Below, piece by piece: positions 1 through 64,000 of a stretch of 64,000 bases of DNA. A model generated the notes under the pieces. It saw only the letters and a program-made list of their open reading frames with translations. It ran no database searches and had not been told where the DNA came from. Position numbers and translations under genes: made by a program. Source of the DNA: Escherichia phage vB_EcoM_EP57; sequence record OR544956. One strand, given 5' to 3'. The first letter of the stretch is position 1, and every line of letters starts with the position of its first letter.

Positions 1-47
1 TTTGTCGGTAGATAACTTGGTAGTATTTGTAGCAGTATTCGCAAGTT

Positions 48-686
48 TTGGTATTAAAAGCACACACTTGCAGCACAATAGGCACTTACTTGTTAAGTTT
101 GGGCTGGTATGTTAATATCTTCTTCGGTGCGGTCATCCTTTTCTGTGCAGCTAAAATGGTATTTGCTGGAGATAATGACGCAGAAGTTGATTACTCTAAA
201 CACTGGGCTACCCGTATTGTTCGTAAACTGTTCCCTGTATCTAATAAAATGGATGGGGAGAAGTTCTTCACAATCGAAAATGGTGTTCGTGTAGCAACTC
301 CAGCTTTGGTTTGCGTATTCGTGATGGAAATGGTGGATGTAATCTTTGCAGTAGATTCGGTTCCAGCGGTGATCGCAGTGACACAAGAACCCCTGCTTGT
401 ATTCTCTTCGATGTTATGTGCAATCTTAGGTCTACGTGCTCTGTTCTTTGTTCTTAGTGTCGCACTGAAGTATCTGGTTCACTTGGAGAAAGCAGTTATT
501 GTGGTTCTGGTGTTTGTAGGCGTTAAACTGATGTATCACCCGTTTGCAGAAACATTGCATGAGAAAATGAGTTTCCTGCCAGCACATATTGATCCAACTA
601 TTAGTATGTATATCGTGCTTGGTACTTTGGCCCTTGGTGTTATTGCAAGCTTTATCTTCCCTGAAAAAGAAGAAGCTACTGTTTAA
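48..686 (+). CDS. terC: TerC-family integral membrane protein, C-terminal part; the N-terminal part (LSVDNL motif) reads in another frame from position 2 and the gene starts upstream of the window
   Basis: Translation contains the second TerC signature VDVIFAVDSVPAVIAVT...FSSMLCAILGLRALFF; frame 2 at positions 2-112 reads LSVDNLVVFVAVFASFGIK; the two frames overlap at 48-115. Confidence 0.6.
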   Translation: MVLKAHTCSTIGTYLLSLGWYVNIFFGAVILFCAAKMVFAGDNDAEVDYSKHWATRIVRKLFPVSNKMDGEKFFTIENGVRVATPALVCVFVMEMVDVIFAVDSVPAVIAVTQEPLLVFSSMLCAILGLRALFFVLSVALKYLVHLEKAVIVVLVFVGVKLMYHPFAETLHEKMSFLPAHIDPTISMYIVLGTLALGVIASFIFPEKEEATV

Positions 687-692
687 TAAATG

Positions 693-717
693 AGCCTCCT
701 TCGGGAGGCTATTTTAT
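693..717 (+). terminator. Intrinsic terminator after terC
   Basis: agcctcc-ttcg-ggaggct hairpin followed by attttat. Confidence 0.5.
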
Positions 718-728
718 AGGAGAGACTT

Positions 729-1079
729 ATGAGTAATTTTGATGAAATTCAAGAACTTGTTTGGGATTTATCTGGTGATGTGGATTACATTTCAGATTAT
801 CTTTCAAAAGTTTACCCTGGGGTAAGCGTTATGATTGTGACCAAAGATCCAATTAATTTGCCTCCTAATGTTGTAGCTTGTTGTGGAAGTGGTTCAGGAG
901 AAGTAGAGCCTGTATCTCGTTGGGAATTAACTAAAGCTGTTTCAAAACGAAACGGTGAAGTTTTGAATATTGATATTGAGCAAATATGGACTTCTCCAGC
1001 AGCCAAATGGAATGATCCAAATGGTTGGGATTTGTTCTTCTGGGATAATGAGACTGATGATGAGGTGTTTTTAAAATGA
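729..1079 (+). CDS. Hypothetical protein
   Basis: ORF with ATG start preceded by ggagag; no recognisable motif. Confidence 0.4.
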   Translation: MSNFDEIQELVWDLSGDVDYISDYLSKVYPGVSVMIVTKDPINLPPNVVACCGSGSGEVEPVSRWELTKAVSKRNGEVLNIDIEQIWTSPAAKWNDPNGWDLFFWDNETDDEVFLK

Positions 1080-1146
1080 AATACTTGTTGGTTGTGTTTG
1101 AAAATATCTGTTTTGCAATAGGGTTGTTTGTTGTAATTTTTGTATT

Positions 1147-1175
1147 GACAAGCGTAATCAACGGCAGTAAAGTGA
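1147..1175 (+). promoter_or_regulatory. Candidate sigma70-like promoter (TTGACA-17-TAAAGT)
   Basis: TTGACA at 1147-1152 and TAAAGT 17 nt downstream, upstream of the lipoprotein gene. Confidence 0.3.
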
Positions 1176-1262
1176 GTTTATACCGAGATGGAGAGCAACT
1201 TTATTGCTTCTCTGGAGATTTCAAACACAGATGTATTAATAGCCAAAACGAGGAAAGCAAAT

Positions 1263-1700
1263 ATGAAAAAACTAGCCCTGATTTTAATTGGTTGTATCTT
1301 TTTAACAGCTTGCGAGGATGAAACAAATCCTGCACAATACCAACAACCTCCTCAACAATACGCTCAACAAGGATCTGACGGAGATACAACTATTATCAAC
1401 AATGGTGGCGGTTCTAGTAGTAGCGGTGTTGGTGAGTTTGCTACAGGTATGTTGTTAGGGCATATGATGAGTGGCGGTAGTAATCGTAGCAGTGGGGATT
1501 ATAACGATAACAGAACGATTATTAATAAGCATTATAATACACCTAAACCGAAAACTAATTTTTATGGTAAGCCTAAACAAGAGATAAAAACTTATGAAAA
1601 GCCGAGACAAACTTTTAAAACAAATAGTAGCTATACAACTCGTAAATCTTACAATAGCCCTTTAAGTAAAAAGAGTTCATCTCGTAGCAAGCGACGTTAA
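1263..1700 (+). CDS. Putative lipoprotein (signal peptide with lipobox LTAC, Gly/Ser-rich, basic C-terminus)
   Basis: Internal ATG at 1263 preceded by gaggaaag; MKKLALILIGCIFLTAC; the track ORF 1188..1700 is the same frame with an earlier start. Confidence 0.5.
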   Translation: MKKLALILIGCIFLTACEDETNPAQYQQPPQQYAQQGSDGDTTIINNGGGSSSSGVGEFATGMLLGHMMSGGSNRSSGDYNDNRTIINKHYNTPKPKTNFYGKPKQEIKTYEKPRQTFKTNSSYTTRKSYNSPLSKKSSSRSKRR

Positions 1701-1714
1701 TAAGGAGAAAAACA

Positions 1715-2308
1715 ATGACAATTTCTATTCGTACTTCCATCGTAGGTGTTAAAAGGTTGCCTAATGCTTTGCAAATCACACGCGCTTTGAGGGATACATT
1801 CTCTGCTGTGGACGAGCATAAGATGCTTGATAATCTTTCAAATTGGCCCTATTTCCATTATTTTAAAAATGAAGATGACGAGTTTATAGACGCTGTTTCT
1901 TATGGTTATGATTTCGGTAAGGAGGTTTCTGCTGAAGAATTTGTAGCTATGGTGTTCCCAAACGGTTTGCCTACTCGCAGTAAACGTAAAAAAGGACCAA
2001 AAAACAAGAAACGTGCTACTAATAAAGCTACCATTTTCTTTACTGATGGCACACAATATACGATTAAAGATTTTGAAGAGGTATCTTATACAGCAGGTGG
2101 GAATCTTTCTTTCTACACCATCAAAAAACAAAACTCTACGTTCAGCCATGTTTCTAACATGATTGAAATGTTAGTAGAAGATATTGAAAGCGTAGCTGTG
2201 TTAGGTATGCATAAAAGCTTTTTAATTACAAATATTTCAGATTTCAGTGCAAGTTTATCTGGCCCTGATTTTGAAGCCACGACCACGCATTTCGCTTTTA
2301 AGGTGTAA
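1715..2308 (+). CDS. Hypothetical protein
   Basis: ORF with aggagaaaaacaATG ribosome-binding context. Confidence 0.45.
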   Translation: MTISIRTSIVGVKRLPNALQITRALRDTFSAVDEHKMLDNLSNWPYFHYFKNEDDEFIDAVSYGYDFGKEVSAEEFVAMVFPNGLPTRSKRKKGPKNKKRATNKATIFFTDGTQYTIKDFEEVSYTAGGNLSFYTIKKQNSTFSHVSNMIEMLVEDIESVAVLGMHKSFLITNISDFSASLSGPDFEATTTHFAFKV

Positions 2309-2311
2309 GTT

Positions 2312-4011: not shown

Positions 4012-4545
4012 GAATCCGTATCTATATAATTGATGAAGACATTGGTGTCCGTTATGATGACGAAAAACGATTCGCACCGATGGGAGGTATATATCCCCCA
4101 AGTGTTCTAGCAGTTTGTCGTGATTGTTATATTTATGAAGGTTGTCGTAACTTCCGTAAATTCGAACTCCTTGCAGATATTGACTTCAATGAGGAGGAGG
4201 AGTAATGAAAATATTACGAGTGAATATTGAAACTGCTTGGTGTGGATGCAATGAGGTTGTGGATATCGAAATTGAAGATGATATGTCTCAAGAGGATATA
4301 GAAGATCTTGCGCACGAAACCTTTCAGGATTATTGTAATTACGGGTTCCATATTTTAGAGGAGGAAGAAGATGTTTAATTGACTCGACAGGAACTGATCA
4401 CAATCATTGAAGATGCTTTTATTGATGGCTGGAATACACAAGATAATGACTGGGGTGGACCCGAAGCTTTTCTGGAACATCATAAAACTTATGGAGACTC
4501 TTGTGAAACCACTGTAGCTCTTGATAATCTGAAGGAGGGTTTGTA

Positions 4546-5109
4546 ATGGGTTGTTTTAGCTTTTTGTGCAAAGAATCGGGCAAAGCTGCCCTTTCTACTT
4601 CTTTCGACGGATCACCTTGCTACCTCTTTCTTTTGAAGGACGGTGTTGTTATTGAAGAGATGTATGGCAACTATGATAGTTATGGTTGTGTTTTCTCTGG
4701 AAAGGAGGATGAAAACGGCGTTCGTGAACGATTTGAATGGGCTATGGATTGGGGTAAGGTTTGTGATTTGATGCATTCCTCAAATCCAAGGGACGGTATC
4801 GCTATGGTGCTGGAAGAGTACTTTACAGGTGAAATCCCTACAGAACAATCTGACGGAGATCCTAACCAAGGTTGGGGTGATGGTGAAGAAGATCCAGATT
4901 GTTTTTTCAGCACAGAAAAGAATAAGTTTAAACGTGTTGACAACCCTTATCACAAAGTGCATAATACTCTCATTGAAACAGAAGATGACAAGATGGAAAT
5001 TGAAGAAGATGATCCTCTTGTAACACTTCCTGTAAGTGAGTTACAAAAGATCACTAAGGAAGCTTACGATTTGGGCTTCAAAATTGGTAGAGGAGGTATG
5101 CGTGTTTAG
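4546..5109 (+). CDS. Hypothetical acidic protein
   Basis: ORF track; ggagggtttgtaATG context. Confidence 0.35.
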   Translation: MGCFSFLCKESGKAALSTSFDGSPCYLFLLKDGVVIEEMYGNYDSYGCVFSGKEDENGVRERFEWAMDWGKVCDLMHSSNPRDGIAMVLEEYFTGEIPTEQSDGDPNQGWGDGEEDPDCFFSTEKNKFKRVDNPYHKVHNTLIETEDDKMEIEEDDPLVTLPVSELQKITKEAYDLGFKIGRGGMRV

Positions 5110-12040: not shown

Positions 12041-13561
12041 GTGTCGCACATTATAACTAAATATGGATTTGATGTTGATCTTAGCAAGGAAGGGCATACA
12101 GGTTGTCCGCGCTGCATGAAAAATGGCAAGGATCGCTCTCGTAATAACCTGATGGTTTATGGATTAGATTCTAATGGAGAGCATAAAGGTGCTAAGTGCT
12201 TTGCGTGTGAATACACTATTCCTAGCGTAGAATGGTTACGAGAAAATGGTGAAGTTTTAGAAGAAGAGGAGGAGATTGTGGGTTCGGAATTTAATAAACA
12301 GATTCATCGTAAAATTGTTCAAGAAACATCAACCAACCCACGTGGTTATCGAGGCATTAAAGAAAAAGTTTCATCTTTCTATGGCGTTCGTTATGAATAC
12401 CGTCAGGAAGGGGATCAGATGGTAGTAGAAAGTTGTTTATATCCGACTACCATCGGTAAAGAGTTGGTTGGTTTTAAGCGTCGTATTCATCCTAAAGATT
12501 TCAGTAAACCTATTGGTCAAGTAGGTAAAGATGTAGATCTTTTTGGACAAATTCGTTTTGCAGACCGTTCTCATACTGTGGTAATTACAGGTGGTGAACA
12601 CGATGCTCTGGCAGCTTATCAAATGCTGTCTGAAAACTTGGACAACAAATATGAACTTCCAGCAGTAGTTAGTGGCACAACTGGTGAAACCAGTATGTAT
12701 AAACAAGTTCAGGCACAATATCCTTTCTTTGAAAAATTTAAGAAGATTATTGTTTGCATGGATAATGACAAAGCAGGTAATGAGGCATTTGAAAATATTG
12801 TTAAGGTGCTGCCTCGTAACAAAGTCTACCGTATGCAGATGGATCTAAAGGATGCCAATCAGTATCTGGAAGAAGGCCGTGCAAAAGATTTCGTAAAAGC
12901 TTTTTGGAGTGCTCGTCTATACACCCCAGCAGGTGTTTATGCTTCTAATGTCTTGTATGAAGCTGCATTAGAATGCTTGGAATCCAAGATGATTACCTTG
13001 CCTCCTTTTATGCGTGTTGCTGCAAACATGCTGGGTGGTGGTTTAGTAGAGGAAGAGATTACCGTCATCCTGGCAAAGACCAGTATCGGTAAAACTTTGA
13101 TGGTGAACGAGATCACCAAACATATTATTGTTGCGCACCCAGAACATACCCTAGGTATTCTGTCCTTGGAAGCAACTTATAAGAAATATTCTCGTAACCT
13201 GTTGTCCTCGTTCCTGCATATTCCTCTACACAGGAAAACACCGGAAGAGAAATTTCAAATCTTGGAAGAGAATAAAGAAAAAATCCTAGATTTTTACGAA
13301 AGAGAAGATGGATCACCACGTTTTTATGTGTGTGATGATCGTGGAGCAGATGTGGAGTCTATCAAAGAAAAAGTTTTGGAGATGATCATCTATTTTGGAG
13401 TAACAATTCTTGTTATCGACCCTTATTCTGATTTGCTTTCTGGTATGGATGTTCAAGCCCAGGAAGAGTTAGCAACATGGTTGAAGCGCATCATGAAAGA
13501 GTATGCTATAACCATTATCCACACGTTAAGAAGTCGGCTAATGGTGGCAATGAACACTTAA
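12041..13561 (+). CDS. DNA primase/helicase (T7 gp4-like), N-terminal and central part; reading frame changes near 13520
   Basis: N-terminal Cys4 zinc ribbon (CPRCMKNG...CFACEY), Walker A LAKTSIGKT, beta-strand ITIIH; the C-terminal helicase motifs continue in the -1 frame. Confidence 0.7.
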   Translation: MSHIITKYGFDVDLSKEGHTGCPRCMKNGKDRSRNNLMVYGLDSNGEHKGAKCFACEYTIPSVEWLRENGEVLEEEEEIVGSEFNKQIHRKIVQETSTNPRGYRGIKEKVSSFYGVRYEYRQEGDQMVVESCLYPTTIGKELVGFKRRIHPKDFSKPIGQVGKDVDLFGQIRFADRSHTVVITGGEHDALAAYQMLSENLDNKYELPAVVSGTTGETSMYKQVQAQYPFFEKFKKIIVCMDNDKAGNEAFENIVKVLPRNKVYRMQMDLKDANQYLEEGRAKDFVKAFWSARLYTPAGVYASNVLYEAALECLESKMITLPPFMRVAANMLGGGLVEEEITVILAKTSIGKTLMVNEITKHIIVAHPEHTLGILSLEATYKKYSRNLLSSFLHIPLHRKTPEEKFQILEENKEKILDFYEREDGSPRFYVCDDRGADVESIKEKVLEMIIYFGVTILVIDPYSDLLSGMDVQAQEELATWLKRIMKEYAITIIHTLRSRLMVAMNT

Positions 13562-13812
13562 CAGAGGACGATGCAATGGGTAGTAGTTTCTTGGCTAAAG
13601 GTGCTGGTATTACCTTGGCTTTGGAACGAGATAAAGCCGCTGAAGACCCTGTAGAACGCAATACGACTCATTGCTTTATCCTAAAAAACCGTGAGTTCTC
13701 GGAAACTGGTCCGGCAGGGCAGTTTTACTATGACATTAGAACTGCAACTCTGCATGACAAAGAGCAGTATTTCAACAATCCTGCTAATTTGCCTACGGAT
13801 AGCAACTATTAA
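13477..13812 (+). CDS. C-terminal segment of the primase/helicase in the -1 frame
   Basis: HVKKSANGGNEHLTEDDAMGSSFLAKGAGITLALERDKAAED resembles the T7 gp4 helicase C-terminal motifs (LICHLKNPDKG...[23 protein letters not shown]). Confidence 0.55.
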   Translation: MVEAHHERVCYNHYPHVKKSANGGNEHLTEDDAMGSSFLAKGAGITLALERDKAAEDPVERNTTHCFILKNREFSETGPAGQFYYDIRTATLHDKEQYFNNPANLPTDSNY

Positions 13813-17785: not shown

Positions 17786-17977
17786 ATGCATTACGATTTA
17801 GATTGTCTTGGTATGCCTTACCTACCAGATGAATTTGAAGGCGAAGAAGAACGTGAATGGGACGATGGGGATATCCGTTGTTGGTCTTGTGGTAAAGATA
17901 TGTCTTATGAACAACATATGCACAATGATGGTTTCTGTATACATTGTTATAATGAAATTGATCTGGAGGAAGATTAA
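17786..17977 (+). CDS. Small Cys-rich protein
   Basis: CWSCG ... CIHC. Confidence 0.35.
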   Translation: MHYDLDCLGMPYLPDEFEGEEEREWDDGDIRCWSCGKDMSYEQHMHNDGFCIHCYNEIDLEED

Positions 17978-18154
17978 TGGGAAATGGTATCATGATTTGC
18001 TATAAAATTGTGCGTATTGTCGGAGACGAAGTTACCACTCGGTATTTTATGATAGAGTCTCAAGCCGATGAGGTTTACAATGACTGGCTTGAAAAAGGTG
18101 GATACGATTTTGTATCTAAAGAAACTTTCCGTTTAGAAGTATAAGGAGAAAACA

Positions 18155-18373
18155 ATGCGTAAACTAGTGAGCTTTAATGTTTCAATTCTTATTGATGAAC
18201 AAAATGAAGATGTTATTAAAGGTCTTGCAAATAAGATTGCAGGTGGAATGACGGAAGCTGAAGTGTGGGAAGAATGTGCTCGACTTTATGAGGAAGGTGT
18301 TATTGAGGTCTTGGGAGATGAGATTAATATGGACGATATTGTTAAAGTAACTGTGGAGCGTATCAATGACTAA
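18155..18373 (+). CDS. Hypothetical small acidic protein
   Basis: ORF track; aaggagaaaacaATG. Confidence 0.3.
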   Translation: MRKLVSFNVSILIDEQNEDVIKGLANKIAGGMTEAEVWEECARLYEEGVIEVLGDEINMDDIVKVTVERIND

Positions 18374-18593
18374 ATCAAAACAAATCAATATTGCCAAAGA
18401 AATTCTTACCGTATTAAAGATCGCTGATCCTAATTCTGTCTTGGCTGGCGGTGCTGTTCGTGATTGGCGTATTCTTGATATTGCTGGACGTGATCTGGAT
18501 TTTTACACATCTCTTCCTGCACATCGGAAGGTGTTACTGGTCTTAAACACGTTTTTGAGTTTGAACGTGATGGTCAGCTTTGCAACCTTATGA
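18366..18593 (+). CDS. Pol-beta-superfamily nucleotidyltransferase (CCA-adding-like head), N-terminal segment; continues in the -1 frame
   Basis: VLAGGAVRDWRILDIAGRDLDFYT (GGxVRD plus DxD). Confidence 0.45.
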   Translation: MTKSKQINIAKEILTVLKIADPNSVLAGGAVRDWRILDIAGRDLDFYTSLPAHRKVLLVLNTFLSLNVMVSFATL

Positions 18594-18868
18594 TTATGGA
18601 ACCAAGCGTAATGACAACCTTTCTAAATGAGTTTGATCTGTCCATCTGTCAAGCTGCATTTGATGGGAAGGATTGTTATTATTCTAAAGATTTTGAAACA
18701 ACCTTGGAAACAGGGATCTGCTTCTTGCACAAAGATGTTAGAGAAGATGCCAAACACGTTATTAAAATTGCTACACGTTTCCCATATCTTCGTTTTGTGA
18801 AAGAGGTTAAGGTTCCACGTCCACCTCAAGTAGATACCAGATTGGAAGAAGATGATATTCCTTGGTAA
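18590..18868 (+). CDS. C-terminal segment of the nucleotidyltransferase (frame -1 relative to 18366..18593)
   Basis: This frame is open upstream of its first Met and reads ...EGVTGLKHVFEFERDGQLCNLMIMEPSV... Confidence 0.4.
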   Translation: MIMEPSVMTTFLNEFDLSICQAAFDGKDCYYSKDFETTLETGICFLHKDVREDAKHVIKIATRFPYLRFVKEVKVPRPPQVDTRLEEDDIPW

Positions 18869-18875
18869 TTAAAGC

Positions 18876-18905
18876 TTGACAATATTAAACATTTTATGAT
18901 AGGAT
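18876..18905 (+). promoter_or_regulatory. Candidate promoter (TTGACA-18-TAGGAT)
   Basis: -35 consensus at 18876-18881; -10 is degenerate. Confidence 0.35.
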
Positions 18906-18913
18906 AGCATTCA

Positions 18914-19306
18914 ATGACTGAACGTTCTAAGATAGCTGTTGAAACTGTTTATGGAAACTATACCAGTTTGACACTAGTTGAGAAAAATGTTGTAGGTCTT
19001 GACAACTCTTTTTATTTTCAAATTTTGGTTATTCAAGGTGGAAACAAGAAGCTAACTGCTCGTGTTGAAACATCTGAAATAATTGAAACCACTGTTACAA
19101 ACAAAGAATTCATTTCACTGCAAGATACAATCCGAAACGTTATAGACGAAGAAGGCAAAGCTGCCACAATTAAACTCGGAGGTTTCCCAGTGCAAATAGT
19201 TCATTTTCCTAATGGTGAAATTGGAGTTGGAATAGGTAAAGGTAAATACCTGTTAGAGCAAGATGATATGGAAAGACTCCGCTCTTTCTGTGCAAAATTA
19301 ATGTAA
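18914..19306 (+). CDS. Hypothetical protein
   Basis: ORF track. Confidence 0.4.
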   Translation: MTERSKIAVETVYGNYTSLTLVEKNVVGLDNSFYFQILVIQGGNKKLTARVETSEIIETTVTNKEFISLQDTIRNVIDEEGKAATIKLGGFPVQIVHFPNGEIGVGIGKGKYLLEQDDMERLRSFCAKLM

Positions 19307-19322
19307 TGTAGAGGAGATAATA

Positions 19323-20210
19323 ATGTCCGTAATTAATACTGAAACTGATCGTAAAGGCAAAACCGTAACTTATGCAACTGGTATCGTAGACTACGTTAAA
19401 CTGGATAAATTCGCTGAACCTAAAACTTTCCATTGGGAAGGAAAAACGATTGTTTCAACTCACCGAGCTTCTCTTGTTCTGAAAGAGAAAGGTGCTAAAC
19501 CAGATGAGAAAGGTGTTTGGATTTCTCTTGGTGACATTGAACTGAAAGAAGGTTATGAAAACCTGCAAGTCAAAGAAGGTGATAACTGGATCACTATTGA
19601 AAAAGGTGTAGAAGTAAGTATTGATATTGATCGCGTTGATAATAAAGGCGGTAAAACTTACTACAATACTAAAAAATCTCGTATTACAGTATTGTCTACC
19701 GAGGGTGTTCAGAAGTCTAACAAATCTTCTGGCAATAAGGGGTCCAACGATGCGGCTCCTAAACAATCCTATAAAAAACGTGATACTGTAGGTCTGGAAA
19801 CTGGTCACGCAGTAAATGGTGCACTGGAACTGATTCGTAATGGTGTTAAAGGCGATGCTTTCGATATTGCTGGGGTTGTTCAATCTGCAACTGTCACGCT
19901 GAAATCTGAAATTGCTGAATCTCGTGGCGTTGATATTAATGATTATGATCTTGGGGCATCTGTTGGTCACGCTATTCTCAATGCTTGTAAAGACCATACT
20001 ATTAAGACTGTCTCTGTAGAAGATCTGATTGATTCTGCTCGTAAAGTTCTGGCTCTGTCTGATAAAGTTGCTGCTGCCATTCGTGGTTCAGCAGAACAGC
20101 CTAAGAAAGAAGAGAAGAAAGAAGTTAAGAAACCTGAACCACAACCAGAACCAACTCCAAGTAATCAAGAAGAACCTCCAATGGACTTCGACGATGATAT
20201 TCCATTCTGA
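19323..20210 (+). CDS. Single-stranded-DNA-binding-like protein with an E. coli SSB-type C-terminal tip
   Basis: C-terminus EEPPMDFDDDIPF is essentially the E. coli SSB interaction tail (MDFDDDIPF), preceded by a Pro/Glu-rich linker. Confidence 0.5.
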   Translation: MSVINTETDRKGKTVTYATGIVDYVKLDKFAEPKTFHWEGKTIVSTHRASLVLKEKGAKPDEKGVWISLGDIELKEGYENLQVKEGDNWITIEKGVEVSIDIDRVDNKGGKTYYNTKKSRITVLSTEGVQKSNKSSGNKGSNDAAPKQSYKKRDTVGLETGHAVNGALELIRNGVKGDAFDIAGVVQSATVTLKSEIAESRGVDINDYDLGASVGHAILNACKDHTIKTVSVEDLIDSARKVLALSDKVAAAIRGSAEQPKKEEKKEVKKPEPQPEPTPSNQEEPPMDFDDDIPF

Positions 20211-20220
20211 TCTTATTGAT

Positions 20221-21849
20221 TTATAAAGAGTTTTTATAAAAGAAAAGATACTCAACAACCATACCAGGTAAGCTTGCTGCCCCTGTTGGCGTTATTTCTG
20301 CTACCATTGTTTGTGTTGTTCCTACATCCATCGCAGATAAGCTAGGAGTGTAAACGCTCAATGTTGAAGCATATCCTCCAGAGGTATCTGATAAAGTTGT
20401 TCCTTCAGCGTTTAAGGCTGTCATACCTGCATCAAAACCACCTTCTGCATGGAAAGTCATTAAACCAGTAGATGATATTGTCATGTTTGCAGGGGCAGAA
20501 GAAGTGTATTTAATATTGAAAAGTTTACCTCCTTCTGGGCTAACAGAATGTGTCAACTGTTTAGTTCCACCTACAATACAAATTCCTAAAGAATCTGTAG
20601 TTAAGCCAGTTGCCAGAATATCACCCGTAATCACGGAGCTTGCTATTGGTGTGAATTTATTATAGTTTAGACCGCTATTGAACAGATACGAGGCTTTCCC
20701 ATCTTTCCAAATACCGGAATAATACATATCTCCATTATAAACGAAAAAGGTTCCTTGATAACCTAATTGGTTAGTAACATCCATATTCAGCGTATGAACG
20801 CTTGTGAGCTTGTTTATATCCCAAGAACCCACTCCTTCAGGTTTAACTGGTTTTCCCACTTGGAGTGGATCTCCGCTCGCAGAATCATACCCCAAACCTA
20901 AGTTTGCAGTGTAGTTCTTACCAATAGCCCACAAGGAATTATTGATCCCAACGAAAAAAGAGTGGCGGCTTGGTGGAAACTTCCATGTTGAGAAACCTGC
21001 TGCAAAGGTATCCAGTTTAGTGTAGGTTGTTTCTGTATTAGACCTAACATATAAGTAGTTTACTGTACCCGAGCCACCGGAGGTATCTCCTACAACTATT
21101 GTCTGGGAAACTGTATTGATGTAATCTTTGACATACACTGTTTCAGTAGCGGATATCTTAGCATTGACAAAAGCTGTTGTTGTGTTATTATTACCTGCTA
21201 AACCTTTACTAGCTCCACAAACACGCAAGGTTCCCACATTGTTGACATAAGAGCATTGGTTGTAACCTGCATCAAAAGCAACTGCTGCACTTGTTATCTG
21301 ACGAGGAGTAGAAACTTCGTTAGTAGTACTTGCACCTAAACTACCTACTGTGTTTTGACCTGATCCATAAAGAACACCACTATTCATTAACCAGAGAGTG
21401 TTGTTATATCCTCCCTTAACCTCTTTAAGATTGGCTAAAGAGATAGTCCCTGTTATTACAGATGGAAAGCTGGTCCAAGTAGTTACACATGCGTCCGTAC
21501 CACCTGCCGCTATAGATCCTACCAATCCTGCTGTCAATCCTGAATATTGCCATCCCCCACTGTTAGTTTTAATAACAAAACAACGATCTGCGGTAAACAC
21601 ATCCGCTACTACAGTAGAAGCTAAGTGGAAATTATTGAATCGTGCACTACGAGTTCCATCTGCAATCTCACCAAAAAGGTTTGCGCCTTGAGTAAACAAT
21701 CTACCATCATTAAGCAAAATTGCTAAACTGCTATTAGAATTACCAGCATTATCTGGGTAATCTAAAGTGATTACTTTTTTAACAATACCTGCTGGCAGAG
21801 GAACGACACCAGTGCTGGTCATAATAGTAAATATTGGAATTGGAAACAT
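20221..21849 (-). CDS. Tail fiber or receptor-binding protein (Gly/Thr/Ser-rich, repetitive)
   Basis: 542 aa, last gene of the late module; repeated G-x-hydrophobic segments. Confidence 0.4.
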   Translation of the reverse strand: MFPIPIFTIMTSTGVVPLPAGIVKKVITLDYPDNAGNSNSSLAILLNDGRLFTQGANLFGEIADGTRSARFNNFHLASTVVADVFTADRCFVIKTNSGGWQYSGLTAGLVGSIAAGGTDACVTTWTSFPSVITGTISLANLKEVKGGYNNTLWLMNSGVLYGSGQNTVGSLGASTTNEVSTPRQITSAAVAFDAGYNQCSYVNNVGTLRVCGASKGLAGNNNTTTAFVNAKISATETVYVKDYINTVSQTIVVGDTSGGSGTVNYLYVRSNTETTYTKLDTFAAGFSTWKFPPSRHSFFVGINNSLWAIGKNYTANLGLGYDSASGDPLQVGKPVKPEGVGSWDINKLTSVHTLNMDVTNQLGYQGTFFVYNGDMYYSGIWKDGKASYLFNSGLNYNKFTPIASSVITGDILATGLTTDSLGICIVGGTKQLTHSVSPEGGKLFNIKYTSSAPANMTISSTGLMTFHAEGGFDAGMTALNAEGTTLSDTSGGYASTLSVYTPSLSAMDVGTTQTMVAEITPTGAASLPGMVVEYLFFYKNSL

Positions 21850-40068: not shown

Positions 40069-40404
40069 TTAAACAAGTTTCTTAAACAAATCTGACATTT
40101 TATTTGTCTGGTTTTGATGTTTTCTCTTTATTGAAGTGTCTTTAACATACATGGCTTCAACATACTCTTCGTATGTTAAATACTCATATAGTTTTAAAAG
40201 ATAATCTACACCGTAGTTATCCAATGTTTTCAGTGTTTCCGAGGTATCTTTAACGACTTTGCAAAGAATAACCTCATACCACTTCAAAGTAAGGGTTTTC
40301 GTTGCTGTGTCGATAGCATGTTCAATCGCAGGTGTTAATTTGCTGCTAAACTCGTCATCGCCTGAAGCTGTGTGAACAGTTTTCCGAAACCTCGTTTGAA
40401 AAAA
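40069..40404 (-). CDS. Tail assembly chaperone frameshift extension (GT-like product made by -1 frameshifting from 40335..40817)
   Basis: The -1 frame is open from 40428 to the stop at 40069; slippery site on minus-strand codons occupies plus 40398-40404. Confidence 0.5.
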   Translation of the reverse strand, partial: FFQTRFRKTVHTASGDDEFSSKLTPAIEHAIDTATKTLTLKWYEVILCKVVKDTSETLKTLDNYGVDYLLKLYEYLTYEEYVEAMYVKDTSIKRKHQNQTNKMSDLFKKLV

Positions 40405-40817
40405 GGGCCGTAGTTTACCTCCAGAACTTTAGCAGTAAGATCTAACACTAGTTCTGGGTGAGCCATAAATAATTCATCAAAATTTTCTGCAACGTTATAA
40501 CCGTCTTGAGTATAAACCTCATCTAAAATTTTACGCAAAAATACAGTTAAATTCTTTTCTTCCAAACCTGCAAAAAGTTGGATCAGTGCCATAGCAATAC
40601 GTGACTCAAGGTCTTCGTCTGCGGACATTGTTGCTGTGCTATACATAGTCATAGGAACAACCAGAACACTACCCAATTCTGGAATCCTGTCAAACACTTT
40701 AGATGGACTCCACTTCATAATACGGAAAGTAACAGATCTGTTTCCATCTAACGGAATCTCAACTACTTCTTCTGGTCGAGCATATTTTTGAATCGTGTTA
40801 TCTTGTTCTTGTGACAT
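40335..40817 (-). CDS. Tail assembly chaperone (G-like short product)
   Basis: Sits between tube and tape measure; carries the slippery heptamer T_TTT_TTC 21 codons before its stop. Confidence 0.55.
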   Translation of the reverse strand: MSQEQDNTIQKYARPEEVVEIPLDGNRSVTFRIMKWSPSKVFDRIPELGSVLVVPMTMYSTATMSADEDLESRIAMALIQLFAGLEEKNLTVFLRKILDEVYTQDGYNVAENFDELFMAHPELVLDLTAKVLEVNYGPFFKRGFGKLFTQLQAMTSLAAN

Positions 40818-53553: not shown

Positions 53554-53632
53554 TGGAGGCGGGAATTGGATTTGAACCAATGATCTCCAGCATATGAAAC
53601 TGGCGAGGACGACCAGACTCCTCTATCCCGCT
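53554..53632 (-). tRNA. tRNA with anticodon CAT (Met or Ile2)
   Basis: Manual fold: T-arm ATTGG-TTCAAAT-CCAAT, anticodon loop TTCATAT, CCA encoded; 1-72 is an A-C mismatch. Confidence 0.55.
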
Positions 53633-53638
53633 ATTATG

Positions 53639-53708
53639 TATCCCGTGCTGGATTCGAACCAGCATCACAATAAGCTGTGGAACTCTTATCCTGTAAGTCT
53701 AACGGGAA
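53639..53708 (-). tRNA. tRNA-like element, unassigned (anticodon arm cannot be folded; possibly degenerate)
   Basis: Good T-arm GCTGG-TTCGAAT-CCAGC and acceptor pairing, but only about 70 nt. Confidence 0.3.
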
Positions 53709-53710
53709 AC

Positions 53711-53784
53711 TGGTTGTTTCGACAAGAATCGAACTTGTGTCTCACGATTATCAGTCGTGGGTTCTACCATTGAACTACGAAACA
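53711..53784 (-). tRNA. tRNA-Ile (anticodon GAT)
   Basis: Perfect acceptor, T-arm and anticodon stem; loop CTGATAA; CCA encoded. Confidence 0.7.
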
Positions 53785-53790
53785 TTAAAT

Positions 53791-53867
53791 TGGTCGGAAT
53801 TGCAGGATTCGAACCTGCGACCCTACGCTCCCAAAGCGTATGCTCTACCAAACTGAGCTAAATTCCG
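53791..53867 (-). tRNA. tRNA-Pro (anticodon TGG)
   Basis: Perfect cloverleaf; anticodon loop TTTGGGA; CCA encoded. Confidence 0.7.
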
Positions 53868-53960
53868 TCATAACATTCTAAAGGTACACCGCAAAAGAAA
53901 GTGTTCGGCGGCTCCTCGTTTTTAACTTCACACTTGAGGTAGTGACTCACCTTTGTTATA

Positions 53961-54036
53961 TGGCTGGTCTGTCTGGATTTGAACCAAACCTACGACAGTC
54001 AAAGTGTCGTGTGCTACCGGACTACACTACAAACCA
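53961..54036 (-). tRNA. tRNA-Gln (anticodon TTG)
   Basis: Cloverleaf with anticodon loop CTTTGAC; CCA encoded. Confidence 0.65.
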
Positions 54037-54134
54037 ATAAATCATTTAATGAAGGGCAACCAGAAGAGGTGTGAGAGAAGGAGAAAACCATGAGTAAAAG
54101 AGAAAGTTTTCTGGCAACCCTTTATTAAATAATT

Positions 54135-54208
54135 TGGAGCGTTCTACGAGGATCGAACTCGTGCCGCCGACTTGGAAGGACGGAATGCTACCGCTACACC
54201 AAGAACGC
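54135..54208 (-). tRNA. tRNA-Gly (anticodon TCC)
   Basis: Acceptor GCGTTCT/AGAACGC, anticodon loop CTTCCAA; one mismatch in the anticodon stem. Confidence 0.55.
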
Positions 54209-54219
54209 CCTACATCTTT

Positions 54220-54249
54220 ACTATACTACATTTTACTATTGGTTGTCAA
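54220..54249 (-). promoter_or_regulatory. tRNA-operon promoter 1 (CTATTGACAA-18-TATAGT)
   Basis: Minus strand; -10 ends about 11 nt before the tRNA-Gly 5' end. Confidence 0.55.
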
Positions 54250-54524
54250 TAGTTTTATTGAGTGGGACAGTGACGAGTATCCCGTTGGGTGACTAGCCCT
54301 ACGTTCGGTAAGCTAACTTAAAATAATACAAAACCAAAGTCAAATATTATTCTTCGTTGCTGTCGATGGGAGAGCCGCTTCTCATTTTGCCCCATCCAAC
54401 CCTACTCCGGTCAAGTTTCGGGTAACTCTTTTTGTGTGATCAACACAATACTAAGAACACTGTCTTTCGAACAGACCTTGTGCACAGGATACGACGATCA
54501 ATCACAGTGCTCTTAATGTTGTGT

Positions 54525-54599
54525 TGGTGCTCCCACACTGAATCGAACAGAGATCCACGGATTACAAAACCGTTGTAATAGCCATTATACTATAGGAGC
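54525..54599 (-). tRNA. tRNA-Thr (anticodon TGT)
   Basis: Anticodon loop TTTGTAA; minor stem mismatches. Confidence 0.5.
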
Positions 54600-54605
54600 A
54601 AAGCT

Positions 54606-54682
54606 GGGACTCGGCAGGATTCGATACCTGCAATTCCAGAAGCCTCTTGGCGACTGGGGGTTTACCTTAACTCTACAAGTCC
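54606..54682 (-). tRNA. tRNA-like element, unassigned (T-arm near-identical to tRNA-Pro but with an 8-nt loop; no foldable anticodon arm)
   Basis: gcaggattcgatacctgc versus gcaggattcgaacctgc in tRNA-Pro. Confidence 0.3.
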
Positions 54683-54689
54683 ATAATTC

Positions 54690-54775
54690 TGGCGATGAGT
54701 ATAGGATTTGAACCTATATCGTTCTTTCGAACACGGATTAACAGTCCGCCGCTTAAACCATTCAGCCAACTCATC
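54690..54775 (-). tRNA. Class II (long variable arm) tRNA with anticodon GTT
   Basis: Perfect acceptor GATGAGT/ACTCATC, T-arm ATAGG-TTCAAAT-CCTAT, extra arm GTTC-GAAA-GAAC, anticodon loop CTGTTAA. Confidence 0.45.
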
Positions 54776-54781
54776 TTAATT

Positions 54782-54869
54782 TGGTGGTGAGTGATGGAGT
54801 TGAACCACCCGAATCGCAATGATAACAGATTTACAGTCTGCCCCGCTACCCCTACGGAATTAACTCACC
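54782..54869 (-). tRNA. tRNA-Tyr (anticodon GTA), class II
   Basis: Anticodon arm CAGA-CTGTAAA-TCTG as in E. coli tRNA-Tyr; 88 nt. Confidence 0.6.
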
Positions 54870-54947
54870 TAAATACTAATATTTAAATTCTTTTTAAAAT
54901 AGCCAGTGTTCACACCACTAACTATGTAAGCCATATTAAAAAGAACT

Positions 54948-55033
54948 TGGCGGTAGATGTAGGACTCGAACCTACACGCCGTTTCCGACTACAGTTTAGC
55001 AAACTGTCGTGGCTACCATTTCACCAATCTACC
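54948..55033 (-). tRNA. tRNA-Ser (anticodon GCT), class II
   Basis: Anticodon arm ACAGT-TTGCTAA-ACTGT; long variable arm. Confidence 0.65.
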
Positions 55034-55038
55034 TAATC

Positions 55039-55129
55039 TGGCGGAAGGAGGGAGAGTCGAACTCCCAAGGCTCTTTCAAGCTCGGCGGTTTTCAAGACCG
55101 TTTTCGTCGCCACGTCGATTTGCCCTTCC
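55039..55129 (-). tRNA. tRNA-Ser (anticodon TGA), class II
   Basis: Anticodon loop CTTGAAA; long variable arm; 91 nt. Confidence 0.55.
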
Positions 55130-55137
55130 ATACTTAT

Positions 55138-55167
55138 AATCTAACATAAAATAATGTTTGTTGTCAA
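55138..55167 (-). promoter_or_regulatory. tRNA-operon promoter 2 (CTATTGACAA-18-TAGATT)
   Basis: Minus strand; -10 ends about 9 nt before the tRNA-Ser(TGA) 5' end. Confidence 0.5.
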
Positions 55168-55363
55168 TAGTTTTTTAAAACATTTTACCATGAATGGTGA
55201 CTCCACCAACCCCCGTTCTCCACGAACGGTGCTCTTCGAGCATTTATGTCTTCTAATATAACCGTGGCCTTTGTTTATAATGTCTGACATACTTGCCTCA
55301 TTCTCTGCCACCATGATCAGTAGTGGGTTCAAATTACTTGAGCTAATTCATGTTAAAATGTTC

Positions 55364-55438
55364 TGGTGTCTTTACAAGGAATCGAACCTTGACTAAGAGT
55401 TTAGAAGACTCCTGTGCTATCCATTACACCATAAAGAC
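55364..55438 (-). tRNA. tRNA-Arg (anticodon TCT)
   Basis: Anticodon loop CTTCTAA; acceptor GTCTTTA/TAAAGAC. Confidence 0.6.
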
Positions 55439-55440
55439 GT

Positions 55441-55515
55441 TGGTGGCCCTGGCTGGTTTCGATCCAGCTACCTATCGGTTATGAGCCGACAGCTCTCCCA
55501 TTGAGCTACAGGGCC
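55441..55515 (-). tRNA. tRNA with anticodon CAT (Met or Ile2), second copy
   Basis: Acceptor GGCCCTG/CAGGGCC, D-stem GCTC/GAGC, anticodon loop CTCATAA. Confidence 0.6.
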
Positions 55516-56915: not shown

Positions 56916-57332
56916 ATGAGATTTACAAGACAAGAGGTAGTTGTACTTGACGAAGCAATGACAATGATCGTCTTTTACTATGAGGATATCTTCTGTGCAG
57001 CATATCATTTAAATGATATTCAGATTGAATGGAAGCAGATAGCATTCCTGTTGGACAAGAGTAATCATTTGGATGGCTTTGAGTATTTGGAGTGGGATGG
57101 TGCAAAGGAAGTTAAAATTGTAGGGTTAAATCACGATCAGATTGTTGACATGCAATGTAAGTTGTGTCATTATCAGTTCTCAAACAATCCTGGCAACAAT
57201 TGTTCTGATTTTTGCCATGTGTGTGGTTCACGATGTTCTGGTAAGCTACTTTTGAAGACACAAGATGTGTCCTACAGCCGTGTTACGCTTACTGGCGACC
57301 ATACCCCAATCATGGAGTACGTAAAGAAATGA
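56916..57332 (+). CDS. Cys-rich hypothetical protein
   Basis: CKLCHY ... CHVCGSRC; taggaggctagaATG. Confidence 0.4.
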   Translation: MRFTRQEVVVLDEAMTMIVFYYEDIFCAAYHLNDIQIEWKQIAFLLDKSNHLDGFEYLEWDGAKEVKIVGLNHDQIVDMQCKLCHYQFSNNPGNNCSDFCHVCGSRCSGKLLLKTQDVSYSRVTLTGDHTPIMEYVKK

Positions 57333-58132
57333 GCAACTATCCAATTACAGGCGTAACCTATTCTTGTGTAGCAAAAGGTGGTTTATATACAGTAGTGGAA
57401 TTTCCAAAACCTGCCGGAATATCTAAAGTGTTTGATCCTGTGGTTATCTATGAAGATCTTAGAACAGGTCAACGTTACTGGAGATTTGTGAATGACTTTT
57501 TAGATCGTATGGAGGTAGTAAGTGGCGAAAACACCGAAGAAGTTATCAAAGCCAACGTTACTAAGAAACCGAAAAACGAGGTTCTCAAAGTAGCCAAATC
57601 AGTTCCTAAGAAAGATAAATTTGATACGGAGGCATTCGTCTTTGACACACCAATCGAGAAGATTGAAGAAGCGTTGCAACGTCTTGAGGAGCAGGAGGCA
57701 GATCCAATGGCTGAACCACTCGCTGAAGCAAAAAACATTGGTCGTTCCAATGAAACAACACCAGAAGAACAAGCTGAACTTGAAGCTTTTGCCAAATGGA
57801 CAAAACAGTTAAAGAATGGCTATTATAAAACAAAAGAAGAAGCTGAAAACCATGTTCCTTCCACACCAATGAAATGCCAGGATTATAAAGATTATCCTGA
57901 AAGGGTTGTGTTCCCTGGTTATGCACAATACAAACTGAACGGGTTACGTTCTATGATTAACATGAAAGGAGAGTGTTTATCAAAAGCTGGGGAAGTGTAC
58001 AACCTGCCACCTCATTGGAAAGGTATTCCAAACTTTATTAGTGAAGTTGTTGGTCATCCTCTTGATGGTGAAGTGTTTGCTGGGTTAGGTGTCCTTAGTC
58101 TGCAACAAATTAACAGTGCTTGCAGTAGTTGA
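57329..58132 (+). CDS. ATP-dependent DNA ligase-like protein, N-terminal and adenylation part; frame changes near 58090-58130
   Basis: Motif I-like YKLNGLR (KxDG-type with N in place of D) and motif III-like LDGEVFA. Confidence 0.45.
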   Translation: MSNYPITGVTYSCVAKGGLYTVVEFPKPAGISKVFDPVVIYEDLRTGQRYWRFVNDFLDRMEVVSGENTEEVIKANVTKKPKNEVLKVAKSVPKKDKFDTEAFVFDTPIEKIEEALQRLEEQEADPMAEPLAEAKNIGRSNETTPEEQAELEAFAKWTKQLKNGYYKTKEEAENHVPSTPMKCQDYKDYPERVVFPGYAQYKLNGLRSMINMKGECLSKAGEVYNLPPHWKGIPNFISEVVGHPLDGEVFAGLGVLSLQQINSACSS

Positions 58133-59551: not shown

Positions 59552-59607
59552 TGTTGTAAGCCGCCCTTTATGGGCGGTAATGTGAGATGTATTAAATAGG
59601 AGGAAAC

Positions 59608-60486: not shown

Positions 60487-60490
60487 GTTC

Positions 60491-60548: not shown

Positions 60549-60558
60549 AGGAGGCGTT

Positions 60559-60768: not shown

Positions 60769-61209
60769 TTAGGGGGAAATATTAGCGGTTATATTTTAAT
60801 TAAGCCTGAAGATCTTCATTTATATGTCAACGAAGAAACAATAGCTGCAATTGATTATGATCAGATCGCTTTCCAAGCAGCGTCTGCATTAGAGAAAAGA
60901 ACAATCATTGCAAAGCACATCCCTTCAGGTGCTCAAAAGGAATTTAAAAATAAGACAGAGTTTTGGGGTAAAAGCAAGACTAAGATTGGAGGTTGGCTAG
61001 GAGATACAAATGCAGAAAGAGCCTCCAAAAACAAACGTCCCTTCACAAAGGAAGAGTTCGAAATCATTGATAAGCAATACCCGCCAGAAGATATCGGACA
61101 CACCTTCCAAGCAGCTAAAACAAAAGTCTTAGGTATTCTAAAACATCTACGTTTAGAAAAATATTGCGGAGTTATTGGCGTAGGAAAAACTTTCAGACAC
61201 GCCTTCAAA

Positions 61210-62849: not shown

Positions 62850-62855
62850 TAATCA

Positions 62856-62878
62856 GGGAGCTTATTGCTCCCTTTTTT
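62856..62878 (+). terminator. Intrinsic terminator (GGGAGC-UUAUU-GCUCCC then UUUUUU)
   Basis: Hairpin plus T6 right after the exonuclease stop. Confidence 0.55.
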
Positions 62879-62879
62879 A

Positions 62880-62908
62880 TTGACAAAAATTTTATATTAG
62901 TGTATACT
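62880..62908 (+). promoter_or_regulatory. Strong sigma70-type promoter (TTGACA-17-TATACT)
   Basis: Same boxes as the promoter at 13843; followed by aaggagg and the ATG at 62936. Confidence 0.6.
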
Positions 62909-62935
62909 CTGCTAACCACAATAAAAGGAGGAAAT

Positions 62936-63090
62936 ATGAGCATTACATTAACAGGTAACGAAATTTTCGAACTGTTTGAAATGTTAGGTTTGAACTATAC
63001 CATCCGATGGTGATATTATCTATCAAGGTAGGGTAGCTTATTATGCAGACTACCCAGAAGAAGGCGCAGTAGGAATTCAGGAGGAAAATT
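62936..63090 (+). CDS. Small protein (about 50 aa) split by a frame change near 63005-63013
   Basis: MSITLTGNEIFELFEMLGLNYTIRW stop, continuing in another frame as GDIIYQGRVAYYADYPEEGAVGIQEENYV. Confidence 0.3.
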
Positions 63091-63492
63091 ATGTCTAATG
63101 CTTTTGATAATCAGGTTGACGGTGATCACTACACAAAGATGGCAATGCAACCTATTGAACTAGCTTATTTGGTTGGTGGCACACCTTGTTTTTGCAAATT
63201 GGCAAAATATGCAACACGTATTAAAGGTGAACGTCAGATTAACCTAGATAAAGCTATTCATTGTATTGAACTAGAAAGAACCCTTATGCAAAATAACACG
63301 TATATGGTTCGTGAAAATTATCCCTCTATGACAAATGCAGCTAAACATGATCAAGCTATGCTTCTTATTGATTTCTTCACAAAAGATCCTTTAATACGAG
63401 TAGCACTGAAACACATGTATAACTCTTCTTATGTAGATGCAATCGAAGCTATTAAACAACTTAAGGAACGTATTAGTGGCGAGCAATACTAA
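63091..63492 (+). CDS. Hypothetical protein
   Basis: caggaggaaaattATG. Confidence 0.45.
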   Translation: MSNAFDNQVDGDHYTKMAMQPIELAYLVGGTPCFCKLAKYATRIKGERQINLDKAIHCIELERTLMQNNTYMVRENYPSMTNAAKHDQAMLLIDFFTKDPLIRVALKHMYNSSYVDAIEAIKQLKERISGEQY

Positions 63493-63580
63493 ACAATATG
63501 GAGCAGGAGAAGTTTATAAAATATTCAACCGAAAAGGTGATAAACTTTTACTAACTTTGACTATTCCAGAAACAATGTGC

Positions 63581-63610
63581 AAGGCGGGGTTAGACCGCCT
63601 TTTGTTTTTT
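63581..63610 (+). terminator. Intrinsic terminator (AAGGCGG-GGUUAGA-CCGCCUU then UUUGUUUUUU)
   Basis: Strong hairpin plus T-run; it lies inside track ORF 63437..63670, which argues against that ORF being fully coding. Confidence 0.5.
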
Positions 63611-63680
63611 AAACATAATATCCCACCAGGGGAATATACAGCTAAAAAGGTGAGCAATATTGGCAGGTGAACCAAAAATA

Positions 63681-64000
63681 ATGTGGGGTGAAGGAACACC
63701 CTGGAAAACACAAGCTGAATTTTATACTTATCTTAGGGGATGTTTTAGAAAAGCATGGATGAGACACCCTAATAAAATTAAGGTTATCAATGCAAGGCGT
63801 TTTAAAGTTGATCGTGTAGATAAAGACGGCAATGTAATGATAGACAAGAAAACTGGAAAACCAAAACAAGTTTGGAATTGTGAGTGCGAAATATGTGGAC
63901 ACAGAGGAGGAATGAAAGACTTCCAAGTGGATCATATTCACGCAGCAAAACAACTTCAATGTTTTGAGGATATTCCCCTTTTTGTTTTCCGTTTAATCTA
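63681..64000 (+). CDS. HNH/endonuclease VII-like nuclease, 5' partial (runs off the window end)
   Basis: CECEICGHRGGMKDFQVDHIHAAKQ resembles the T4 endonuclease VII CxxC ... HLDHDH zinc/catalytic region; no stop before 64000. Confidence 0.4.
   Translation, partial: MWGEGTPWKTQAEFYTYLRGCFRKAWMRHPNKIKVINARRFKVDRVDKDGNVMIDKKTGKPKQVWNCECEICGHRGGMKDFQVDHIHAAKQLQCFEDIPLFVFRLI

Follow-up and report, generated by a model that had tools for sequence, protein, structure and literature searches.

Why does a 64,000-nt stretch of Escherichia phage vB_EcoM_EP57 (sequence record OR544956, one strand; hereafter the window) carry so many broken genes? An earlier note, made without a reference, had counted at least ten conserved genes split by +1 or -1 frame changes and had ascribed these to indel errors in the underlying sequence. 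Comparison with related phages revealed 33 missing segments, ranging in size from 2 to 4,044 bp, and suggests, with a probability that we put at about 80%, that the window is a draft in which gaps were collapsed, made from a Phapecoctavirus genome that was itself normal and functional, i.e., an artefact rather than biology.

A megablast search of about 50,700 phage records, with the window queried as three parts, placed each part in the genus Phapecoctavirus (Stephanstirmvirinae, phAPEC8-like), with Escherichia phage tuntematon (NC_052660.1) as the top match (99.0–99.3%). When compared base by base, the window showed 99.4% nucleotide identity to tuntematon across all 64 kb and was collinear with positions 39,576–114,412 of that record. 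Membership in the genus is further supported by 98-99.4% identity and synteny with tuntematon (Denmark), phAPEC8 (Belgium), Mt1B1_P17 and about 60 other records. The gene order runs from a TerC-like gene through replication genes, a tail/baseplate/head module and an array of 10 tRNAs to a ligase/exonuclease (HNH) region. Tuntematon has the same order from TerC to HNH/exonuclease, the same 10 tRNAs and the same frameshift site in the tail assembly chaperone gene; it differs in carrying 10.8 kb that the window misses in 33 pieces, as does every other relative. Each chunk of the window was shorter than every relative's match, with two chunks of 25 kb corresponding to about 27 kb and about 29–30 kb and the last, of 14 kb, to 17–20 kb.

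Nature, privacy and history of the missing segments

The base-by-base comparison with tuntematon yielded 363 substitutions and 35 alignment gaps. Thirty-three of the gaps are deletions in the window, defined by the alignment to tuntematon and by flank distances in relatives (missing lengths are relative to tuntematon unless stated, and positions preceded by w are those of the window). The other two are a 1-bp artefact at the edge of a high-scoring segment pair (w25755) and a 3-bp polymorphism at w4191, a natural in-frame insertion relative to tuntematon that is gapless against the uncultured contig L033 and at which phAPEC8 and Mt1B1_P17 carry 6 additional bp. The deletions total 10,840 bp (median 56 bp), and no 1-nt indel was found in the alignment of the window with tuntematon; the disruptions are therefore not of the "single-nucleotide" kind that had been described. 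Twenty-three of the 33 deletions are not multiples of three, and 21 of these 23 are coding and frame-shifting. The sizes are spread evenly over the three remainders upon division by three (10, 12 and 11 deletions for 0, 1 and 2, respectively), which indicates that the losses were blind to the reading frame.

Among the 106 tuntematon coding sequences (CDSs) in the region, 64 are intact in the window, although five of these have been shortened in-frame in the window alone. Truncation, fusion or splitting of the frame affects about 24 others, and the remaining 16 are absent. All of the genes named in the earlier note (those for the TerC-like protein, primase-helicase, nucleotidyltransferase, tailspike, baseplate J, Calx-beta protein, long fibre, tube and ligase) are indeed broken, and Pfam supports their identities (Tail_spike_N, Calx-beta with an NCTSP TIM barrel, Baseplate_J, Toprim_2 with DnaB_C). 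While the sites that it listed were confirmed, its count missed about 20 deletions, including the 16 genes that are wholly absent.

Sharing of the gaps was assessed from the distance between the junction flanks in other genomes (BLAST-based mapping). The comparison set consisted of tuntematon, phAPEC8, Mt1B1_P17 and 26 contigs (Logan, ENA and NCBI) fetched via exact matches to intact window proteins. No shared gap was found at any of the 33 junctions, for each of which 3–19 independent genomes were checked: the 26 contigs are undeleted at every junction that they cover, and tuntematon, phAPEC8 and Mt1B1_P17 keep the missing segment at equal length, except at four spots that vary among these relatives. 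The comparison with close genomes that had been proposed as a check thus shows the gaps to be private to the window. A junction 48-mer from the baseplate J gene (w27912) had no exact match in IMG/VR or GTDB genomes, and a junction-specific open reading frame (ORF) of 391 amino acids (aa) was not on record by exact lookup. Over the same region, tuntematon, phAPEC8 and Mt1B1_P17 show zero net frame-disrupting coding indels among them, their indels being in-frame, compensating pairs within divergent patches, or intergenic. The density of breaks in the window is far above this baseline and is rightly called unusual.

The gaps are also exclusive. After the tuntematon segments were put back at the 33 junctions, 104 of 104 testable CDSs were full-length with one terminal stop each; therefore, the window contains no nonsense mutation and no further frameshift, and the gaps are its only defects. 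Locally, some uncultured contigs are closer to the window than tuntematon is. Four near-parent contigs (L033–L036), found via an exact gp103 allele lookup, are 99.78–99.87% identical to it over w1–15096 and have 67 of 69 "private" single-nucleotide polymorphisms (SNPs) in common with it; against them the window shows gaps of 56, 28, 6 and 7 bp and no insertions. Two others (L040 and L041), found via gp127, provide the closest known alleles at w20.2–22.5 kb (99.8%) and have every missing segment present.

The substitutions point to a history of normal selection. Window-specific substitutions, defined as sites where the window differs and three relatives agree, numbered 170, with a transition to transversion ratio of 136:34 (4:1). 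One hundred and fifty-eight are coding, 135 of which fall at third codon positions; 136 of the 158 (86%) are synonymous and 22 non-synonymous, compared to a neutral expectation of about 30% synonymous. For changes private to either phAPEC8 or Mt1B1_P17, the synonymous fraction is 84%. This similarity to intact relatives indicates that full purifying selection acted on the lineage, also on the genes that are now broken. Moreover, many of the "private" SNPs turn up again in other contigs and are therefore natural circulating polymorphisms. Gradual decay was considered and rejected, as 33 indels should be accompanied by some hundred or more unconstrained substitutions, of which there is no sign; neither relaxed selection nor nonsense mutations beside the indels, as expected of pseudogenisation, were observed.

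The junctions themselves are featureless. End-point microhomology averages 0.87 nt (maximum 4), compared to 0.71±0.18 nt in size-matched random excisions (P=0.2), so that direct repeats of the kind left by microhomology-mediated or slipped-strand events are not above chance. Homopolymer runs, which had been suggested as a place to look, average 1.48 nt at the junctions and 1.72 nt at random sites, and no boundary motif was apparent at the 33 junctions. There are 33 deletions, zero window-specific insertions and no 1-nt event, which is not the spectrum of single-base sequencing errors, and the ORFs of relatives run uninterrupted through all 33 positions, a programmed-frameshift signal being present only at the chaperone site. 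Taken together, the junction anatomy excludes homopolymer error, deletion by slipped-strand or illegitimate recombination, and recoding signals.

Placement of the gaps and competing explanations

Family-hypervariable DNA, taken as DNA for which megablast shows no homology when tuntematon is compared with phAPEC8 or Mt1B1_P17, amounts to 8,174 bp and comprises the C-terminal module of the tail protein TfpM1, a patch in gp129, the gp132–133 region, the tailspike cassette and the accessory block that precedes the ligase gene. Within the five largest gaps lie 7,902 of these 8,174 bp (97%; p<5e-5), while 20,000 permutations gave a mean overlap of 1,160 bp and a maximum of 5,849 bp. In the 28 small gaps (≤300 bp), 174 sites are polymorphic in the family, compared to 44 expected (~4-fold, p≈4e-4). 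The sizes of these gaps fit an exponential distribution with a mean of 62 bp (Kolmogorov-Smirnov p=0.29) and the gap positions are uniform along the genome (Kolmogorov-Smirnov p=0.25), as expected for coverage drop-outs. Only 2 of the 64,000 window bases do not align to tuntematon; tuntematon itself has 7.2–7.6 kb of unaligned DNA against each of phAPEC8 and Mt1B1_P17.

Two of the junctions illustrate this placement. At w4378-4379 (+), the gp102 homologue lacks 223 bp relative to tuntematon, phAPEC8 and Mt1B1_P17 and 28 bp relative to L033-L036, and is frame-broken either way. The genus has two natural gp102 alleles, one of 132 aa (tuntematon, phAPEC8 and Mt1B1_P17) and one of 67 aa with a short non-homologous replacement segment (L033-L036); the locus lies at 4371-4546 in the window, 9798-10001 in L033 and 5000-5398 in L001. 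The window belongs to the lineage with the short allele, which is why the gap of 223 bp shrinks to 28 bp against L033. Twenty-seven of these 28 lost bases constitute the sole part of L033 in 15 kb without homology to tuntematon-type phages; the window therefore retains what aligns to a tuntematon-type genome and misses what does not. The second junction, at w29146-29147 (-), lacks the entire exchangeable tailspike cassette along with the 5' end of gp136 (2,227 bp relative to tuntematon and 2,051-2,955 bp relative to other genomes). Cassettes are naturally exchanged at this slot, which adjoins the Calx-beta/NCTSP gene: across eight contigs (L025-L032, locus coordinates ~17893-20660) it holds six distinct receptor-binding proteins, ranging from 540 to 921 aa, namely an endosialidase-type protein (921 aa), a G7C-type protein (849 aa), two Tail_spike_N proteins (688 and 762 aa), a pectate-lyase-like protein (540 aa) and one further protein of 558 aa.

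The restriction to losses and their placement on variable or unalignable DNA indicate that segments were dropped during assembly or consensus building, rather than that reads carried indel errors. Some consensus tools can skip low-depth positions. Stretches that were uncovered, or for which alignment with a closely related guide of the tuntematon type failed, would have been left out while the sequence was built, and the adjacent pieces would have been abutted directly without N placeholders, probably through a reference- or homology-guided consensus or through contigs ordered by a reference. Large gaps would then mark the places where the cassettes of this strain differ from those of the guide, and small gaps would represent coverage or alignment drop-outs, which would be commoner in divergent patches; the resulting frame shifts, seen without a reference, would look like +1 or -1 frameshifts. 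The window shares with gap-collapsed reference-guided drafts, a class to which it is assigned by this pattern, that it shows losses only, that it contains no novel DNA and no sequence absent from a close guide, that losses coincide with divergent or unalignable segments where the strain differs, that small drop-outs with an exponential size distribution are found elsewhere, and that its SNPs are natural and consistent with selection.

Several observations weigh against a collapsed draft. Several very small gaps (2, 2, 4, 4 and 6 bp) are located in well-conserved sequence, which gives no obvious reason for mapping to have failed, and the 6-bp gap at w8318 has no divergence nearby and sits in a hexamer repeat. 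The enrichment in variable patches was calculated from a handful of relatives and not from the actual guide sequence, and the exact step at which the segments were lost is one that we infer from the pattern of losses. In addition, searches with two 40-mers that hold many window-specific SNPs in IMG/VR, and with one of the two in JGI metagenomes, did not find a fully identical, undeleted parent; similarly, no exact match was found for the gp148 allele with its three window-specific amino acid changes.

The explanation closest to that of the earlier note, single-nucleotide base-calling indels from homopolymer errors in long-read or flow-based sequencing, would account for the net +1 or -1 frame change at many sites, the only effect that is visible without a reference. 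The alignments refute it, however, as they show no 1-nt event, no window-specific insertion and no homopolymer context, and it retains essentially no credibility; what stands of the note's explanation is the artefact, and what falls is the +1/-1 base-calling mechanism, since the lesions are losses of 2-4,044 bp without gains. Programmed recoding (frameshifting or bypassing) or tolerated pseudogenisation is equally hard to credit. One real -1 slippery site does exist, in the tail assembly chaperone gene, but at the 33 junctions the proteins of relatives continue uninterrupted and with additional conserved residues, no relative conserves the frame changes, and 16 genes are wholly absent. Excision that was blind to position and took place after assembly, e.g., random removal through corruption of a file or record or through a synthetic perturbation, deserves more consideration, although we regard it as unlikely. 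It would fit the clean cuts, the chance-level junctions, the even distribution over remainders of three, the uniform positions and sizes that span three orders of magnitude, as well as the absence of the queried strings from the databases searched (IMG/VR, GTDB genomes and JGI metagenomes). It gives no reason to expect the five family-variable modules inside the five largest gaps, nor does it predict the enrichment in polymorphic sites or the loss of the sole unalignable 28 bp in 15 kb.

Real biological deletions would make the window a defective, multiply deleted genome, whether defective-interfering-like, helper-dependent or a decaying remnant. A pure deletion bias is typical of decaying DNA, and the ORFs for terminase, portal and capsid are intact, so that a packageable molecule complemented by a helper is conceivable. 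On the other hand, the genes for primase/helicase, baseplate J, tube, head completion, several fibres and ligase are broken, which precludes independent replication or assembly, and a synonymous fraction of 86% without nonsense mutations leaves no time under relaxed selection. The lack of junction microhomology is unlike illegitimate recombination or slippage, no other checked genome or metagenome contig carries any of the junctions, and biology offers no reason for losing 97% of the family-variable DNA or exactly the lineage-specific 28 bp. Real deletions in general are therefore very improbable. A real helper-dependent derivative that kept the packaging and capsid genes, was propagated by wild-type co-infection and lost all of its receptor-binding cassettes, among other segments, very recently lies at the far end of what could be entertained. 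A collapsed draft of an intact genome remains the explanation that we favor.

The junctions along the genome

At the left end of the window, 56 bp (also 56 bp relative to L033) are missing at w75-79 (+) from the gene for a TerC-like membrane protein, which is frame-broken there and also cut by the window start. Downstream of the gp102 junction, gp111 lacks 6 bp (GAAAAT, from the hexamer repeat) at w8318-8319 (+); this in-frame loss affects a segment that is present in 13 of 13 genomes. A 7-bp gap at w13519-13520 (+) splits the 592-aa gene for the primase/helicase (Toprim_2 with DnaB_C) into ORFs at 12041-13561 and 13477-13812, and the nucleotidyltransferase gene lacks 91 bp at w18526-18527 (+).

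In Stephanstirmvirinae, the fibre proteins TfpL, TfpM1, TfpS1 and TfpS3 have been reported to measure 943/958, 890/891, 353 and 157 aa, respectively (PMC12695924). In the window, TfpL is in four pieces, TfpM1 is a read-through ORF of 542 aa, TfpS1 is two-thirds missing and TfpS3 is frame-broken by a 2-bp gap. The TfpM1 junction (w20245-20248, -) represents a loss of ~1,090-1,144 bp, i.e., the last ~356 codons and the stop, with the family-variable module inside, and at w22476-22477 (-) the collagen-repeat tail fibre gene gp129 has lost 486 bp in-frame, including its divergent patch. The tailspike gene gp130 (Tail_spike_N, colanic-acid-degrading type) is interrupted by two gaps, one of 4 bp at w24996-24997 (-) and one of 280 bp at w25754-25755 (-), the latter covering a patch that is about 10% divergent among relatives; once both gaps are stitched, the gene is intact at 3,054 nt. 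The loss at w26585-26586 (-), of 1,247-1,267 bp, removes the end of the lipoprotein gene gp131, the whole tail-fibre assembly gene gp132 and two thirds of the short fibre gene gp133. A gap of 110 bp at w27912-27913 (-) affects the baseplate wedge gene (Baseplate_J), and beyond the tailspike slot 73 bp are missing at w29549-29550 (-) from gp141, which encodes the Calx-beta / NCTSP TIM-barrel protein. The long tail fibre gene gp142 (TfpL, 958 aa) lacks 25, 17 and 19 bp at w31908-31909, w32394-32395 and w33614-33615 (all -), and the 2-bp gap in gp143 (TfpS3) is at w34401-34402 (-).

Farther along, the tape measure gene has an in-frame loss of 144 bp at w38604-38605 (-), and the tail tube / virion structural gene gp151 lacks 28 bp at w41109-41110 (-), a segment that is present in 19 of 19 genomes. 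The head-completion / minor head protein gene gp154 is hit twice, by 152 bp at w43405-43406 (-), reaching up to the gp153 start codon, and by 2 bp at w43529-43530 (-). At w52056-52057 (-), the large terminase gene has lost 6 bp that separate its Shine-Dalgarno sequence from its GTG start; the 691-aa ORF is intact. Through loss of this spacer, the GTG start directly adjoins the AAGGAG Shine-Dalgarno sequence (w52040-52075, -).

The right end of the window contains two intergenic gaps, of 38 bp at w56503-56504 and of 20 bp (13 bp relative to phAPEC8) at w56823-56824, followed by gaps on the plus strand of 63 bp over the gp278/gp277 boundary (w57184-57185), 135 bp over gp277/gp276 (w57251-57252) and 4 bp in the gp275/gp274 overlap (w57554-57555). 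The largest gap, of 4,044 bp (2,617-4,942 bp in other relatives) at w57721-57722 (+), extends from the middle of gp274 across 12 accessory genes to codon 47 of the DNA ligase gene. This loss has produced a chimeric ORF of 267 aa (57329-58132, +), in which the first 68 codons of the transposase-like gp274 are joined in-frame to the ligase from codon 47 onward. The ATP-dependent DNA ligase gene lacks a further 107 bp at w58121-58122 (+). The remaining gaps, all on the plus strand, are in-frame losses of 12 bp in the nucleotide pyrophosphohydrolase gene (w59538-59539) and of 6 bp in the gene for the polymerase exonuclease subunit (w62032-62033), and a loss of 65 bp in gp254 (w63004-63005).

Inherited features and implications

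The one frame change for which a slippery heptamer had been proposed is of a different nature. The canonical -1 run C CCU UUU UUC was confirmed at w40398-40407 (-), near the 3' end of the tail assembly chaperone gene (40335-40817), where the zero frame GGC CCU UUU UUC offers both C CCU UUU and U UUU UUC. The -1 frame, which stays open between 40428 and 40069 (-), overlaps the chaperone gene by 94 nt with the slippery run inside the overlap, and runs on through a 72-aa ORF upstream of the tape measure gene. There is no indel at this site relative to intact phages, and relatives annotate the same ORF pair; several of them list the downstream chaperone part as a separate 72-aa "hypothetical protein". 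The site resembles the G/GT-type frameshift of tail assembly chaperones in having an X XXY YYZ run near the 3' end and an overlapping -1 ORF before the tape measure gene; the frameshift, here predicted from the sequence, concerns this one site and is unrelated to the 33 gaps. It is thus regarded as a putative programmed -1 frameshift that is natural and inherited, and lies outside the artefact.

The tRNA-like elements, two of which had been thought damaged, also turned out to lie outside the artefact. The 10 tRNAs of the array (53554-55515, -) are intact, and ARAGORN finds their order and anticodons to be as in tuntematon and Mt1B1_P17. The annotation of Mt1B1_P17 includes tRNA-Pseudo-CAT and tRNA-Pseudo-GTA; the degenerate tRNA-like elements of the window are therefore inherited. 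While phAPEC8 has a functional tRNA-Tyr(GTA) between tRNA-Ser and tRNA-Asn (L003 12838-12921), the window (54776-54947, -), tuntematon and Mt1B1_P17 retain only a degenerate copy of it, which is the tRNA-Pseudo-GTA of the Mt1B1_P17 annotation. The gap at w54925-54926 (-), of 51-52 bp, falls in the spacer between tRNA-Ser and this inherited pseudo-tRNA-Tyr and touches no tRNA. The first tRNA-Met (53554-53632) has an odd anticodon position (37) and is annotated as tRNA-Pseudo-CAT in relatives.

A few other features of the family were observed. The left part of the window (w1-11750, +) contains a tellurite-resistance-like cluster (TerC, TelA, vWA-TerF-like and TerD by Pfam labels) that is kept in all relatives; between it and the replication module come four genes in a row with glycosyltransferase annotations, and this combination may hint at DNA or surface modification functions. 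One Logan contig (ERR10789694; L038 4990-8322, equivalent to window ~16886) encodes a DNA polymerase I of 1,110 aa instead of 865 aa, owing to an in-frame insertion of ~733 bp, perhaps an intein or an element of the homing-endonuclease type. In Mt1B1_P17 and one Logan contig, an additional small gene lies between gp127 and TfpM1 (L005 21354-21761, L008 15208-15591); it is annotated as an endonuclease in Mt1B1_P17 and is present neither in tuntematon nor in the window.

The value of these findings lies mainly in quality control, and their biological interest is small. The practical advice that annotation should treat the breaks as artefacts holds; however, since the lesions consist of lost segments rather than of base-calling indels, the short-read polishing that had been proposed cannot repair them, and the 10.8 kb would need re-assembly or gap filling. 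The tests applied here, i.e., privacy of indels, restoration of ORFs, synonymous fraction, junction microhomology and overlap with family-variable DNA, form a reusable set that can tell assembly gaps from genuine decay or recoding. If the string were annotated as it is, about 24 genes of an ordinary lytic coliphage would appear truncated, fused or frame-split and 16 would be wrongly recorded as absent, while at least one chimeric ORF and spurious pseudogenes would be attributed to it. Moreover, the string hides all of the phage's exchangeable receptor-binding modules, by which its host range is decided.

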